Virus record (IMG/VR): IMGVR_UViG_3300045988_039227
Coordinates: 41,364-105,363 of that record
DNA length: 64,000 nt
Source: a virus
Reading direction: 5' to 3' (one strand)
In this document: positions 41,305-59,132 of the stretch, piece after piece
How the letters are laid out: each line of letters starts with the position of its first letter
Numbering within the stretch: the first letter of the stretch is position 1
The notes under the pieces: model-generated
Database searches by the model: none
What the model saw: the letters and a program-made list of their open reading frames with translations, nothing else
What the model was told of the DNA's origin: nothing
Position numbers and translations under genes: made by a program

Positions 41305-43197
41305 TCATTTATTCCACTTTGCTGCATTACGCGCAAAGTTGGCTTTCTTTCTCATAGCTGCACTATACTTACTTGGATTCCTTAAAACTTTATTAGCAAA
41401 ACTTTGGACACTCATACCATGCTATTTAGCTGCTTTAGTAAATGTACCACGCTTAGATGGCTTAATATAGATATCCTTCCCAGAATTATGAAATTGTAAA
41501 AGCTGTGGATATATCTTATTTTCTAATGGTGTTGGAGTTCTACCAAGGCCAATGTTTATTTTATGATCCTAAATATGGAACGGAAGATCGTATTGTATAT
41601 CAAATGGTTCTGCGCCAATATATTTACCAACCTCCAAATTATTAAGATAATTATAAAGATTTGTATTTTTATAATTGAAATTCTGCAAATAATTTCCAAG
41701 TTTTATTCCAGATCTACCAAGCGTTCCTCTTAGCCCGCTATTATTTGTAGCTGTTCTAGTAGCGCCGCCTTTATCTACGATATCTGATAGCTTTATTTTC
41801 TAACTTATTGTCATCCAGTCTTGGTAATCCATTCTGTCAAATAAGCCCTAATTTCTATATCCGATAAAGTCTTTTGATTTTGATTTTAATCTCGTACCAA
41901 ATTTATTTATAGACTTAGTTCTGTGCTCATTAAAGAAATTAGATATCTTTTTATTTATTCTCTATCCAGGCATTAAATCCCAAGTATCGTTTACTTTTAT
42001 AATGCCTTCTATTGGATTTTTATTTAACAATTTAGTTGAAACAGACACATTTCCACCAGCACTAGTAACAAAGTCTTTATCAACGAATGGCGTTCCGGCA
42101 TTAACTACTTCTATATCCCTAGCACCACCACCGTAGCCTTTTCCTTTTAATTGTTTTAAAGCATCTATATTGGTTAATTTCGTTCCATCAGCTGCAGACT
42201 GCGTAAATTGATAGTCTCCAGATTGTGGTAATTTCAAATACTTTCTATACGCATTAGCTCTTGCCTATAAAGCAACATCTCCATCTATATTATATGCTTT
42301 TTCAAATACATTTTTAAGAGCTCTACCAGCAAAATTATCCTAAGCCCAAAATGCTTTATTAATATCTGGAGCACTACCTTTTAAAACATAATACGGCCAC
42401 GCAAGAGTTGGAGTAACAAGTTTTCTTGCTGAATAAGAGGCAGGAGGAAGATAGCTATATAATACAGATCTTGTGAAAGCGTTATTAAATGGATTATGAT
42501 TTTCTTTTGATAATTCCAACAACTCCTTAGTGCTCTAAATTTTATCAGAAAACTTTTCGCCAATTTTAGATCCTATCATTATGTCAAATAACTAATCAGC
42601 AGCTCTTCCTGTTTCTCCGTAACCACCATAAAGACCCTAATTGCTCTCTTCCCATGGCATTCCTGTTCCACGCAAAGTCCCAATCCATTTAGTAGGCGAT
42701 AGAGCTGTCATAGCTTTACCAATCTTACCAATCTTATCGTAATATCCGGATGTATCGTATCCGTTTTGCTCCGCAATCATTGCTGGATATTTTATTGCAG
42801 CTTCTACTGATTTATCAAAACCATGAACAACGCCGTTAGGATCCCAATATGAAGACGTGTTATGTCTACCAGCTGCAGCCCATGGATTAACTTTTGATTT
42901 GTCTCCAACAACCTCAACTTCAGGCAACTATAATCCGGCACTATAAAATGGCTCTCCCGTCTCTTTGTAGTAAAGCATTCCATCTTTAACTACCAACGGA
43001 GCTCCTGTTTCAGACTTTATTCCTTTACCATCTCCAAATTTAGGCAACTTCAACTTCTTTCTAAGCTACTTCTCAGCTATCTACTACTCTGCTTCAGCCT
43101 ATGCTTTTCTTCTGCGCTTAATCTTACGAAAGAGCTTATGACGCTGATAGTCATTCTTCTTCTGCATCTTTCGCTTTGGACTTTCCATCTGTGTCAT
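41305..43197 (-). CDS. hypothetical virion protein (630 aa)
   Basis: Frame 1 was checked codon by codon. ATG at 43197 (TGA at 43204 upstream), about 20 TAG, TGA at 41305..41307 followed by TAA. It joins track ORFs 42637..42927, 42340..42522 and 41962..42237. Confidence 0.7.
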
Positions 43198-54993: not shown

Positions 54994-57264
54994 TTATACA
55001 GCAGCTTCTGTATGCTTAGCTTCAAGTGCTGCAATACGAGCCTCAAGAGCTGCAATCTTTTCGTCATATACTGACTTTTGTACGTAGTTATTAATATCTA
55101 TAGTAGTTGCAGCAGATGTTAACACATGATTTGTATCGCCATTAGGAAGATATACACCATTAGTATTTAATGTTACTTGAGAATCAGCTATTGACAACTT
55201 TATACCATCATGCGGACTTATTTTAAAATCACTGGTACTATTATTGTATGGAACTGATATAGATATTAACTCTCCATTATTAGTCTGTGTAACTGCAGAT
55301 TTTTTCCCAATACGCAATCCGTCATAACTTAACTTAAAACCATTGCTATCATCACTAGTGCCTGACAAGCATTGTATTCCGCCAAGATATTCGTTAATCT
55401 CACAAGAGGCGTTTCCGTCTGAAAGCTTCATTACACTAGGAGTTATATTTACATAAGAAGTGTCGCTATTAGCTACTTTAACACCACTATATGGGTTAAT
55501 ATAAGCCATATGACCACTACCACAATCTATATAAAGAGGTTTGTCTGTCTAATACTTATCAGTTATACTAGTATCATATGGAATACCACTTGATTTATTA
55601 ATGTTTGTAATAGCAGTAGTATTGGCAGTAACCTTCTGTTCTACTGCAGTCAATGCTTCTATTGTAGCATATGGAGTAAAATCAATATCATCATCTGTTA
55701 TGAAGTTAGAGTCATTCGTAAGCTGACTAACCTTTGTAGGAACAGTAGGGAGTTCTGTCTTAAGCGCATATTGAGTTATATCTATAGTTCCTGAATTAGA
55801 TGTAAGAACATGGTTATTGTCTCCGTCTTTTAACGATATGCCCTACTTCTAAATGATAAGATCAACATTATGATTTCCAGTAGAATTAAATATTCTGAGG
55901 CCGTCTTCGTCGATATAAATATCTTTGTAGGCGTTTCGTATAGTTAAACCTTCAGTATTTAATTTGGCAGTATACCCATCTTTTTCAACAAGAATATTGC
56001 CCGGCTATAATGTGCTTCGATTATTTCCACTGGCATCGCTATATGCTTCAATATTATTACCTATTGTTCTTAAAGTTCTATCTGGTACGTAAGCCTGCTC
56101 ATACTGATCATCATAAGGAATATAATTGCCTGCATCCTACTTAGCACTAATAGCAGCATTCAGCGTATCAACCTGCTCATTAAGTGTAGTAGTATCAGCC
56201 TTCTGTGCAAGCTTATTATCAAGCTCTGTCTTAGCACTCTCTAAAGCTGTAGTATCAGCCTTAGTATTTATAAGGTTCTGAAGATATGCTTCCTGACCTT
56301 TAGCACGCTCAACCTCTGTATTAACAGCTTCATTGATAGCTTCTTCTGCGTTTGTAGCTCTAGATGTTTCATTCTGAATAGCGAGGGCATTATCACCTTC
56401 AACTTTCTTGGCTCTAGCTGCCTCTGCTGTAATCTCAGCCTTATTCTCTGCCTCTGCTGCCTTAGCTCTTGCGATCTCTTCGTTAAGGGCAACTGTAGTA
56501 GCCTTAGTAGCAATAGCATCATTAATAGCTGCATGTAAGTCATCGTTCTCATTAAGCTTATCAGCAATCTCCTTCAATGTATCATAAGCCTCTGGAGCTG
56601 CACCAACTACATCAGCAATAGCCTTTCTGAATGAACCTTCAGTTGTAGAGTCACCATTAATAACATCTACCTCAGCCTTAATCTCGTTCTCCTTAGCTGT
56701 AGCACGTGTTACCTCAGCATTAAGGTTATCCTTGATTGTATTGTCGTCGTTCTCACGCTTTGTAGCCTCAGCCTGTATGTCTGAATCAAGAGCATTCTCT
56801 CTAGCCTTAGCACGATTAACTTCAGCTGTAAGATCATTACGAAGCTGAGTATCAGCGTTTACTCTTTCCTGCTTCTCTGTATCGATGTTCTACTGAAGTG
56901 TATTGTCTCTTTCCTTTGACTCTCTTTCCTTCTGATCAATCTTCTCATCAAGAGTCTTATCACCCTGGATTCTATTAGCAGTCTCTTCCTCTGCTTTTTC
57001 CTAGAATACCTCAAAGCTCTGATCTGTAGCGTCTCTAAGATTATGGAGTTCATCTACTACTTCTTCAAGAGAATCGTGTTCGCTATCAACGTTGCCCTTA
57101 AGCTCGTCAAATGCCTGGATTACAGCATTAGCATCCATAATATCACCACGAACATATTCGCCAGCATGTTCGCCCATCAAGAGGTTAACTGTTCTTGTAC
57201 CAACATCTTTAGCGCCATGTACATAAACACCCTTCAAAGGTGTCTTAATAAACTTTTTCTTCAT
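54994..57264 (-). CDS. coiled-coil tail fibre protein (756 aa)
   Basis: Frame 1 was checked codon by codon. ATG at 57264, about 8 in-frame TAG (57001, 56890, 56137, 56005, 55846, 55843, 55549 ..), TAA at 54994..54996. It joins track ORFs 57001..57264, 56137..56577 and 54994..55509. There is a long Ala/Glu/Lys heptad region and a C-terminal AALEARIAALEAK helix. Confidence 0.8.
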
Positions 57265-57927: not shown

Positions 57928-57999
57928 TTACCCCACCAGGATTCGAACCCAGACTAAGAGGGTTAGAGCCTCCTGTGCTAGCCGTTACACCATAGGGCA
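57928..57999 (-). tRNA. amber suppressor tRNA, anticodon CUA (probably Gln-accepting)
   Basis: A hand-folded 72-nt cloverleaf on the minus strand. Acceptor TGCCCTA/TGGGGTA; D arm GTGT-AACGGCTA-GCAC; anticodon arm GGAGG-CTCTAAC-CCTCT (U33, CUA, A37); variable TAGT; T arm CTGGG-TTCGAAT-CCTGG; discriminator A. U1:A72 and the GGUGUAACGGCUAGCAC D arm resemble Gln/Glu-type tRNAs (from memory). Confidence 0.85.
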
Positions 58000-58104
58000 A
58001 TATTGTAGAAGCTCACCTTAGGCTATCGAGCTTTTTATGTGCCTAAAACTACTTTGTTGCGAAGACTCGATTCGAACGAGTGACCTCAAGGTTATGGATT
58101 AAGA

Positions 58105-58178
58105 TGCGGAAGTAGGATTCGAACCTACGTAGAACAGCTTATGAGACTGTGCTGGAACCACCTCCAGTCTATTCCGCG
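58105..58178 (-). tRNA. tRNA-like element with CAU anticodon loop, non-canonical D region
   Basis: On the minus strand: CGCGGAA-TAGA-CTGG-AGGTGGTT-CCAG-C-ACAGT-CTCATAA-GCTGT-TCTAC-GTAGG-TTCGAAT-CCTAC-TTCCGCA. The T arm, anticodon arm and acceptor are good (again with C1*A72). Two extra nucleotides lie between the acceptor and D stems. It overlaps the 3' end of the endonuclease ORF. Confidence 0.5.
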
Positions 58179-58594
58179 ATGTTAATCTTATTTAAAATGG
58201 AATCAAGCTTATAATCACTTGCCAAGTTTATATTGTAATAACAATCACTTGGATAATCTAGTCTAAATGTCATGCTGTTTACGACATCGCCAGTTACAGG
58301 AACCATGTACACAACACCGTTTACGATTGTTGCTATAAAATCAACTTGATCTTTTGTATAAGTTTTTGATACGGATCCATTAGCACTCGATCGCTTATTT
58401 TTAAACGGAATTGTAAATCGCTTTGCGTCTAGCATGTGTGCCGTTTTTATTTGGATTCTATATCGTTTATTTTTAAAATCGAATATACAATCATATCTAG
58501 CATTGTTCCCGTAGGGAATACTAACTATTCCGTATTTCATTAATTCAGCAATAACAAGTAATTCTGTTATACTTCCGTTCTGTTTATAATCCAT
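58139..58594 (-). CDS. PD-(D/E)XK homing-endonuclease-like protein (141 aa to TAG at 58169; 151 aa to TAA at 58139)
   Basis: Track ORF 58169..58594. The pattern GSITELLVIAELMKYGIVSIPYGNNARYDCIFDFKNKRYRIQIKT ... VDFIATIV...VYMVP matches my memory of the group-I-intron-associated PD-(D/E)XK endonuclease family (the I-Ssp6803I type), with D..(Q)IK in the catalytic position. There is no internal TAG. Confidence 0.6.
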
Positions 58595-58656
58595 ATTTAA
58601 TCATTTTTAATGAGCCTTGCGAGCTACCAACTGCTCCACTTCGCGATAAATTATTG

Positions 58657-58738
58657 ACCCGTCACATCGAATCGAACGACGGCCTACTGTGGGCTTAGGA
58701 TCCTTACCACAGGGGTGCTACCACTACACCATGACGAG
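58657..58738 (-). tRNA. tRNA-like gene with expanded 14-nt anticodon loop
   Basis: 82 nt on the minus strand. Acceptor CTCGTCA/TGACGGG; D arm GTGT-AGTGGTA-GCAC; T arm CGTCG-TTCGATT-CGATG. The anticodon arm is a 6-bp stem CTGTGG/CCACAG closing the loop TAAGGATCCTAAGC, and no standard U33-anticodon-R37 reading is possible. Confidence 0.45.
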
Positions 58739-59058
58739 ATAAGCACGTAACCTTTAGCTGGAGTTACGTAGAACCAGTATTGGCGCCATTTGGATCCTGC
58801 AGCTCCGAGCGCTGCTAGGGCAGAAAGATTTTCTTTCACCCGGATGTCCCAGTTTATAGAGATTTCAGAAATGGCGGAAACCTCTCGGCGAACTGTATAT
58901 TCGCCCGTTTTCTTTGACTCTTATAAGTTTTAGCTGGACTTATAACCAGTATTGGGTCCATGTGTCAGCTTACCATGGTAGCTTTTTATTTATAGTGTAC
59001 GCACATGGACGCCACTTTATAGATAAACTAAATTTAATAATCTAAAAAATTATGAGTG
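58739..59058 (-). ncRNA. ~320-nt ORF-free structured RNA candidate with two tandem pseudoknot modules
   Basis: No ORF on either strand, and GC-richer than the flanks. Multiple perfect hairpins on the minus strand: GTCCATGTG...CACATGGAC, GGCGAA-TATACAG-TTCGCC, AGAGGTTTC...GAAATCTCT and GCAGC-GCTCGGA-GCTGC. Two copies of CCAATACTGGTT-N-CCAGCTAAA lie at 58920..58956 and 58743..58784. In each copy the hairpin loop pairs with the sequence just downstream (TTATAAGT/ACTTATAA and ACGTAAC/GTTACGT). Confidence 0.55.
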
Positions 59059-59132
59059 GAGTCTATGCAGGAGTCGAACCTGCTAACTATTCCCTTTGTA
59101 TCGGGTCGTCTTTACCGTTTGACTAATAGACT
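59059..59132 (-). tRNA. tRNA-like gene with weak anticodon stem and 8-nt loop
   Basis: On the minus strand: perfect acceptor AGTCTAT/ATAGACT, D arm GTC-AAACGGTAAA-GAC, T arm GCAGG-TTCGACT-CCTGC. The anticodon arm has only CCC/GGG pairing around GATACAAA. Confidence 0.45.

Follow-up and report, generated by a model that had tools for sequence, protein, structure and literature searches.

The subject of this analysis is an interrupted initiator-type tRNA-Met gene, together with a second tRNA gene nested within the interruption, in a 64,000-nt stretch of viral DNA (positions 41,364 to 105,363 of the IMG/VR record IMGVR_UViG_3300045988_039227; this whole stretch is called the window below). The window belongs to a gut crAss-like phage of the genus Burzaovirus and shows approximately 92% identity to cr7_1 and cr124_1 over the common parts. 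Coordinates without a locus number are those of the window, L-numbers (L006, L154 etc.) denote the loci that were compared, and all features of the insertion lie on the minus strand. The insertion, 516 nt in length, splits the tRNA-Met gene exactly at CAU/AA, between CAU36 and A37, and is made up of a 15-nt leader, a 426-nt open reading frame (ORF) for an endonuclease, a 75-nt tRNA that overlaps this ORF by 10 nt, and a 10-nt trailer. Read along the minus strand, the features are as follows:

58610..58645, minus strand: 5′ half of the interrupted initiator-type tRNA-Met (positions 1-36, ending in CAU), sequence CGCGAAGUGGAGCAGUUGGUAGCUCGCAAGGCUCAU
58595..58609, minus strand: leader of 15 nt, UAAAAAUGAUUAAAU, with 1-nt indels in T/A runs among the copies of the insertion
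58169..58594, minus strand: endonuclease ORF of 141 amino acids plus TAG, or of 151 amino acids ending at 58139 if TAG is read as Gln
58104..58178, minus strand: nested tRNA(CAU), supported by ARAGORN, Rfam and its fold, of a phage initiator-like family with a 4-nt connector between acceptor and D stems
58094..58103, minus strand: trailer of 10 nt, CUUAAUCCAU, invariant in 10 copies
58057..58093, minus strand: 3′ half of the interrupted tRNA-Met (positions 37-73), sequence AACCUUGAGGUCACUCGUUCGAAUCGAGUCUUCGCAA, 100% identical to L154 1319-1359

The nested element is a genuine, selected tRNA gene of a distinct phage family. ARAGORN places a tRNA-Met(cat), with position 36 for its anticodon, on 58103-58178(-), and Rfam matches the element to RF00005 at 58104-58178(-) over model positions 1-71 with 36.7 bits (gathering threshold 29; E 2.2e-5 for a scan of 3 kb, 4.6e-6 for one of 621 nt). 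When folded alone, the 75-mer forms a cloverleaf of -24.7 kcal/mol (z -2.87), a value that only 1 of 200 shuffled sequences equals. Its sequence reads CGCGGAA UAGA CUGG AGGUGGUU CCAG C ACAGU CUCAUAA GCUGU UCUAC GUAGG UUCGAAU CCUAC UUCCGCA U, with the 7-nt anticodon loop CUCAUAA (U33, purine at 37), the T loop UUCGAAU and a GG-bearing D loop (AGGUGGUU) that are expected of a tRNA. An earlier reading of the letters alone (hereafter the sequence-only reading) had proposed at this place a 74-nt CAU tRNA-like element at 58105-58178: the element itself holds up against ARAGORN, Rfam and the cloverleaf fold, and its boundary is corrected to 75 nt, discriminator included (58104-58178). Read directly, the sequence also bears out the further features claimed for it, namely C1 opposite A72, that is, the lack of a Watson-Crick pair at 1:72 that characterizes bacterial initiators, the two loops CUCAUAA and UUCGAAU, and stems that are all paired, with four stems differing from those of the split tRNA. 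The same applies to the two additional nucleotides said to precede the D stem, as the usual 2 nt (positions 8 and 9) between acceptor and D stems are replaced by 4 nt, UAGA, of which Rfam aligns 'ag' as an insertion.

Nine further copies of this cassette, with endonucleases 93-97% identical to that of the window, bring the total to 10, and the nested tRNA is the most constrained part of the cassette, under purifying selection. Across these 10 copies, variable columns number only 2 of 75 in the nested tRNA, compared with 71 of 428 for the ORF (Fisher p 6e-4) and 20 of 74 for the tRNA exons; there are 0-1 differences in 75 nt in comparisons where the endonuclease genes have diverged to synonymous distances (dS) of 0.31-0.54.

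Relatives of the nested tRNA are found well beyond the cassette. An 18-nt probe taken from its anticodon arm revealed a free-standing near-twin in the unrelated phage tRNA array L159, and a degenerate pattern applied afterward brought the number of distinct sequences to at least 40, with the common architecture CGCGnnn-UNGA-CUGG-(7-8 nt)-CCAG-C-nnnnU-CUCAUAA-Gnnnn-…-nnnCGC(A/U)-A. Every one of the family elements (CGCG start, UNGA, CUGG/CCAG, C26, CAU, unpaired 1:72) is present in the nested copy, which matches the tRNA-Met of Gordonia phage Forza at 86.8% identity; other members are likewise annotated as tRNA-Met in Gordonia phages and in the crAss-like cr111_1. Among 33 aligned members the acceptor, anticodon and T stems are 93% paired, and double changes fill 112 cells of the alignment vs. 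26±5 in shuffled and 9-14 in slid controls. RNAalifold independently recovers the same three stems; the D stem is missing from its result owing to the misalignment of loops of 7 and 8 nt. Position 1:72 is unpaired (C opposite A or U) in 32 of the 33, and 31:39 is U·G in 24, giving the anticodon-stem consensus G-C, G-C, U·G at 29-31:39-41. Most members carry A73, where the nested copy has U, and many of the free-standing ones encode CCA.

The UNGA connector occurs in all 30 members recovered by an unbiased regular expression, and both UNGA and CUGG/CCAG are kept in L138 and cr111_1, which were found without fixing those bases. Since the D stem and the connector never vary, even in such members, covariation cannot test the D stem; by this comparison, the odd D region is an invariant family feature, and neither degeneracy nor an adaptation to the cassette. 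The idea that the two extra nucleotides are a cassette-specific adaptation that creates the TAG of the ORF was rejected, as UAGA or UGGA is found in free-standing members without an upstream ORF. In phage arrays of 20-30 tRNAs, family members adjoin elongator-Met-like and Ile2-like CAU tRNAs, usually with no canonical initiator present, and this company points to an initiator role for the family and for the nested tRNA, which would then be methionylated, formylated and used for P-site initiation. Outside the cassette lineage, no endonuclease homolog was found adjoining free-standing family tRNAs (tblastn, 276 loci, 2.3 Mb). These comparisons define a large class of initiator-like phage tRNAs whose D region is fixed and non-canonical, with relevance for the control or protection of translation initiation by phages.

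The host gene of the insertion is of a more familiar type. Joined together, the halves 58645..58610 and 58093..58057 give a perfect 74-nt initiator-type tRNA-Met with C1 opposite A72 and A11:U24, whose D arm is nearly identical to that of E. coli tRNA-fMet. Rfam reports neither an RF00028/Intron_gpI nor a group II intron match at E<=10 in 58040-58660, and no intron match in any endonuclease-bearing insertion among approximately 20 related loci; as a positive control, the scan detected a group I intron of 189 nt within the L154 suppressor tRNA (22.8 bits, E 0.004). Only 25 nt of non-coding sequence lie outside the ORF and the nested tRNA, compared with the approximately 200 nt or more of a group I core, and there is therefore no room for a group I ribozyme. 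The 5′ exon does end in U, as is expected before a group I splice site, but the insertion likewise ends in U (…CCAU), and no shifted boundary yields the terminal G of a group I intron. Group I and group II introns were consequently rejected. At the splice sites of archaeal-type introns, a bulge-helix-bulge motif places a 4-bp helix between two bulges of 3 nt; inspection of the junctions revealed instead a 2-nt strand opposite a strand of 10-20 nt, followed by an 8-bp helix, and an intron of this type was also rejected. We infer from these results that the split tRNA gene is unspliced and non-functional. As for the ends of the insertion, a homologous leader is present in L009, and the last 8 nt (UAAUCCAU, 58094-58101) match exactly the reverse complement of AUGGAUUA, the start of the endonuclease gene (58587-58594). 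This complementarity is invariant in 10 of 10 cassettes and paired in the minimum-free-energy fold of the precursor, which suggests that the trailer may sequester the endonuclease start codon and so exert translational control.

The endonuclease product matches PF11645 (PDDEXK_5) over its full length (E 4.7e-19), and a profile built from it and 13 homologs matches PDB 2OST, the structure of I-Ssp6803I (E 2.6e-11). Residues E11, D35, Q48 and K50 are invariant in these 14 proteins, in agreement with a D…QxK catalytic motif. Among cassette copies the dN/dS ratio is 0.04-0.09 over the dS range given above, and the endonuclease is therefore maintained by purifying selection. The clade looks viral, since a scan of bacterial and archaeal genomes returned a single weak partial match, and all relatives found are viral, almost all of them in tRNA clusters. 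The reading frame ends within the nested tRNA, the 5′ end of which overlaps the last 10 nt of the ORF: its TAG (58171..58169) corresponds to tRNA positions 8-10, in the acceptor/D region as the sequence-only reading had placed it, and read-through would extend translation to the TAA at 58141..58139 in the anticodon loop, exactly as had been predicted. Database proteins of 151 amino acids (P0001-P0003) are the exact product of such read-through. Moreover, 9 of 10 endonuclease ORFs carry TAG at codon 5, where the window has CAG, and the ORF of L024 holds a second TAG; these phages therefore read TAG as Gln, and the 151-residue protein is the likely product in them. The 10-residue extension is not conserved in L277, the closest outgroup. 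A tRNA that makes TAG readable lies downstream of the split gene and is annotated as tRNA-Gln in cr7_1 and cr124_1:

57928..57999, minus strand: amber-suppressor tRNA(CUA), called by ARAGORN, Rfam 51.5 bits

The insertion is a discrete mobile unit, whose history is decoupled from that of the exons around it. The empty site is found in L154, a 60.6-kb IMG/VR contig syntenic with the window at 87-94% identity, where an uninterrupted tRNA-Met (Rfam 61.6 bits) lies at the same place and is identical to the joined halves at 72 of 73 positions. The 10 cassette copies reside in at least six exon alleles with unrelated flanks. Between L006 and L021 the insertions differ at 0 of 515 positions and the exons at 10 of 73 (14%), whereas the window and L023 have identical exons and insertions that differ by 6%. 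Identical cassettes in exons that are 14% different argue for ongoing homing. The exon alleles also show compensatory pair changes across the insertion at 5:68, 27:43 and 28:42; the split tRNA of L021 is a chimera with mismatches, and a G-A mismatch occurs in the T stem of the L006 type. This pattern indicates what would be expected of repeated homing into pre-existing tRNA alleles with variable co-conversion. Given the position of the insertion, the empty site and the decoupled histories, the endonuclease would be predicted to cut the uninterrupted tRNA gene at the insertion site.

More distant relatives of the endonuclease occupy similar places. Diverged ORF-only insertions are present in the anticodon loops of split tRNA-Met genes in L013, L032, L025-27, L031 and L278-282, and recur in at least 5 diverged endonuclease lineages; L014 has one in a tRNA-Asp gene. 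Other insertions are decayed: the anticodon is missing in L008-L012, and L009 retains a 5′ half, followed by an endonuclease ORF whose end is overlapped by a complete tRNA-Met, the 3′ half being lost. Free-standing relatives occur in L035, L037 and L038. In L277, whose endonuclease is 87% identical, the same combination of endonuclease gene and tRNA is not located within a split tRNA, and the tRNA of this module is degenerate, carrying approximately 7 stem mismatches and the anticodon UAU.

We would also like to record several observations on these relatives. The endonucleases of the L025-L031 and L016 subclade (approximately 250 amino acids) bear a C-terminal extension with CxxC…CxxC and a helix-turn-helix-like tail, and are still encoded by ORF-only insertions of approximately 800 nt in split tRNA-Met genes. 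In L278-L282, L025, L013 and L014, the insert bears at its 3′ end a sequence complementary to that of the 5′ junction (CAUAAAAA/UUUUUAUG, CAUAAG/CUUAUG, CAUAUU/AAUAUG). The ORF-only insertions of six lineages end in G. Large structured RNAs are found in the endonuclease-bearing phage tRNA clusters of L015, L027, L029 and L033, of L013 and of L278; they comprise ROOL RNA (283-343 bits), a partial OLE match and a tmRNA adjoining the split tRNA.

Taken together, our favored reading, held with moderate confidence, is that of a ribozyme-less homing cassette which sits inside a phage initiator tRNA gene and carries its own, probably nuclease-immune, replacement initiator-like tRNA. An endonuclease similar to I-Ssp6803I would recognize the anticodon-arm DNA of canonical-type tRNA-Met genes, and its gene, linked to a UNGA-type tRNA, would have become inserted at the cleavage site. 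In mixed infections the enzyme would then cut the uninterrupted canonical-type tRNA-Met genes of co-infecting relatives at or near the anticodon loop, as I-Ssp6803I does on tRNA-fMet genes, and repair would copy the cassette, with the two tRNA halves serving as homology arms. As no self-splicing RNA is present, the interrupted tRNA would be dead, and the nested tRNA, a tRNA(CAU) with unpaired 1:72, would supply the lost function, presumably being aminoacylated and formylated. The nested gene would itself escape the nuclease because its anticodon arm and D region differ. The intact target core AGGCUCAUAACCU is indeed absent from the window, the nested copy departing from it at positions 31 and 39. 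Compared with each of the target alleles observed, the anticodon arm of the nested copy is different at 31:39 and at the majority of the flanking positions. I-Ssp6803I has been reported to contact 23 positions of its target (PMC3384342), and in a direct comparison the nested copy differs at about half of these. With no intact target left in the window and with these differences in the nested copy, self-immunity appears plausible. A replacement initiator tRNA resistant to the nuclease of its own cassette was among the possibilities raised by the sequence-only reading, and it is the one favored here by the mobility of the unit, the lack of a ribozyme, the conserved tRNA and the family hallmarks, with resistance and initiator role predicted from sequence.

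Several findings weigh against this interpretation. Bacterial initiator tRNA-fMet is marked by an unpaired 1:72, three G:C pairs at 29-31:39-41, A11:U24 and A73. The nested tRNA lacks the three G:C pairs, having A29-U41, G30-C40 and U31·G39; it also lacks A11:U24, as its D stem is CUGG/CCAG, and its discriminator is U73 instead of A73. The textbook three G:C pairs and A11:U24 are missing from the whole family. In addition, the tRNA downstream of the related endonuclease of L009 has the canonical arm AGG-CUCAUAA-CCU, so that immunity via positions 31:39 cannot be a general rule. The whole block, both tRNAs included, is missing from the close relatives cr7_1 and cr124_1; these phages can accordingly do without an initiator tRNA, and selection for its rescue need not be strong. 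Finally, 5 of the 6 exon alleles (9 of the 10 copies) keep every pair that spans the insertion, which selection on a spliced product would also predict.

An alternative that we regard as unlikely, yet deserving real attention, is that the tRNA is simply a linked neighbor of the endonuclease: it would persist because it is useful to the phage in its own right, for instance as an initiator that is spared by the anticodon nucleases of the host, and be co-converted during homing, so that any replacement of the lost function is incidental. The endonuclease would in this case have originally been a free-standing gene beside the tRNA, like SegB in the tRNA cluster of T4. The module of L277, located outside a split tRNA, would fit such an origin, as would the abundance of the UNGA-type family in free-standing form in many phages. 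VapC-type enzymes are said, in work by Winther and Gerdes from 2011, to cut tRNA-fMet close to 31:39, the pair adjacent to the anticodon loop. Evasion of host tRNases, among them the VapC that cleaves tRNA-fMet, has been proposed for phage tRNAs with altered anticodon arms (PMC10264068), and the UNGA family, with U31·G39 in 24 of its 33 aligned members, resembles these tRNAs in having an altered pair beside the anticodon loop. The same study notes that phages mostly avoid encoding tRNA-fMet (PMC10264068). SegB provides the precedent for co-inheritance through intronless homing, as it drives the inheritance of flanking tRNA genes (PMC2330249). It is like the endonuclease of the cassette in its association with phage tRNA genes, in having a tRNA gene sequence as its target, which for the cassette is a prediction, in its presence/absence polymorphism and in the co-inheritance of adjacent tRNA genes (PMC2330249); however, SegB is a GIY-YIG enzyme encoded between tRNA genes that recognizes the T-arm region, whereas the gene described here lies inside a tRNA gene, at the anticodon loop, together with a cargo tRNA. 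Two points speak against the linked neighbor: the tRNA of L277 is degenerate, which would not be expected were it beneficial alone, and in the crAss cassettes the nested tRNA always accompanies a disrupted canonical gene.

It is rather improbable, in our opinion, that the split tRNA is still matured by a route that does not depend on a ribozyme, either through RNase P/Z cuts and ligation or through protein-catalyzed splicing, with the nested cloverleaf as a handle. Such maturation would account for the pairs preserved across the insertion in 9 of 10 copies, with their compensatory changes at 5:68, 27:43 and 28:42, for the complementarity that insertion ends show, in several lineages, to the 5′ junction or the ORF start, and for the repeated occurrence of ORF-only insertions at the anticodon loop of tRNA-Met genes, seen in at least 5 diverged endonuclease lineages. 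The diversity of the exons is, however, explained by homing into pre-existing alleles, given that identical cassettes occur in different exons; no ribozyme was found, and the junctions lack bulge-helix-bulge geometry. RNase P/Z cuts would moreover leave tails of 15 nt and 10 nt and the ORF on the halves, and we know of no bacterial tRNA-splicing ligation pathway for such ends. The mismatched chimera of L021, the loss of the anticodon in L008-L012 and that of the 3′ half in L009 also argue against maturation. The sequence-only reading had considered the nested element both as an RNase P/Z processing handle that frees the exon halves and as a structural mimic taking part in splicing; neither proposal gained positive support, as no ribozyme or bulge-helix-bulge motif was detected and split tRNAs are decayed or chimeric in L008, L009 and L021.

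That the fold is a cis-acting RNA element, defining or stabilizing the 3′ end of the endonuclease mRNA or coupling it to read-through termination, rather than a decoding tRNA, seems very unlikely. The ORF does end inside the tRNA, at TAG or at the TAA of the anticodon loop, and the trailer pairs with the start codon; but at least 40 homologs stand free in tRNA arrays without an upstream endonuclease, many of them encoding CCA, and the 10-residue extension is not conserved in L277. Highly doubtful, too, is the notion that the ribozyme-less, ORF-only insertions at the anticodon loops of phage tRNAs are true introns removed by proteins, in which the endonuclease or a host RNase would make the cuts, RNase P/Z processing of the nested tRNA would help to release the halves and an RNA ligase would rejoin them. 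The tetrameric PD-(D/E)XK endonuclease shares its fold superfamily with the archaeal tRNA-splicing endonuclease; were the notion correct, bacteria and phages would possess an equivalent of the protein-dependent tRNA splicing of archaea. A chance match or a decaying pseudo-tRNA, as the modest Rfam score of 36.7 bits and the non-canonical D region might suggest, can practically be discounted, being excluded by the conservation of the element (0-1 changes in 75 nt vs. synonymous divergence of 0.3-0.5 in the ORF) and by the strong covariation of its family.

If the reading as a homing cassette with replacement tRNA is retained, the arrangement combines known kinds of element, homing endonuclease genes and phage tRNAs. 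The persistence of homing endonuclease genes is usually explained by a self-splicing intron or an intein that masks the damage done by them. In the Cleave-and-Rescue system (ClvR), an engineered Cas9 drive, the nuclease destroys the resident allele of an essential gene, and a linked, recoded and immune copy supplies the function. The cassette would follow the same logic, except that its target appears dispensable (cr7_1 is without the tRNA) and its immunity is a prediction. It is thus a candidate natural cleave-and-rescue element and, provided that replacement and immunity both hold, it would give homing endonucleases a third means, alongside introns and inteins, of reducing the cost that they impose. 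The cassette is also relevant to the question of how a free-standing endonuclease turns into an embedded element. No published account of a split tRNA with a homing endonuclease in a phage was found.

Intronless insertion of an endonuclease gene is reportedly also seen in phage Aeh1, where nrdA is split by mobE and function is said to be restored at the protein level, by subunit assembly. Fractured genes with split inteins (PMC2677866) are alike in that an endonuclease gene interrupts a functional gene without self-splicing RNA and function is restored otherwise; they restore it at the protein level, whereas the cassette would do so via a second, divergent gene copy. The closest parallel in terms of target is I-Ssp6803I of Synechocystis PCC 6803, which shares with the phage element the endonuclease family, an initiator-type tRNA(CAU) host gene and the insertion in the anticodon loop. 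Its group I intron in tRNA-fMet comprises 655 nt for an ORF of 150 amino acids (PMC1995217), and therefore holds approximately 200 nt of ribozyme. Differently from this self-splicing 655-nt intron, the phage insertion of 516 nt has no ribozyme, contains a complete second tRNA and resides in a crAss-like host. An I-Ssp6803I-family endonuclease can thus occupy the equivalent tRNA site without a ribozyme, and one lineage carries a second, divergent tRNA with the same anticodon.

The split gene lies in a region with a small tRNA-like cluster upstream and, downstream, the amber-suppressor tRNA(CUA) and a dUTPase gene (minus strand). The ORFs upstream of the dUTPase gene (56859-57264, minus strand) are apparently broken by TAG, which fits TAG recoding in late genes. 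In L154 (1618-1798), the anticodon loop of the suppressor tRNA(CUA) carries the 189-nt insertion mentioned above, which matches the full Rfam Intron_gpI model (22.8 bits, E 0.004); the window copy at 57928-57999 is, unlike that of L154, uninterrupted. Immediately downstream of the cassette in L007, L018 and L023, ARAGORN reports tRNAs with four-base anticodons (taaa).

Within the upstream cluster, a tRNA-like element at 58653-58737 (minus strand) is called by neither ARAGORN nor Rfam. It has good acceptor, D and T arms and an anticodon arm in which a 6-bp stem, CUGUGG/CCACAG, closes a 14-nt loop with GGAUCC. L154, cr7_1 and cr124_1 lack this element; the window, L019 and L021 possess it, and among these three its T stem shows a compensatory change from C-G to A-U. 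Another tRNA at 59059-59132 (minus strand) is matched by Rfam (38.3 bits) without an ARAGORN call; its anticodon arm consists of a 3-bp CCC/GGG stem and the 8-nt loop GAUACAAA, and it is kept in cr7_1, cr124_1 and L154. Lastly, a direct repeat of approximately 30 nt (TTAGCTGGAGTTACG.AGAACCAGTATTGG) is located on the plus strand at approximately 58757-58790 and 58930-58960. The segment that it brackets is present in the window and in cr7_1 and absent from cr124_1, which suggests deletion or insertion by recombination between the repeat copies.

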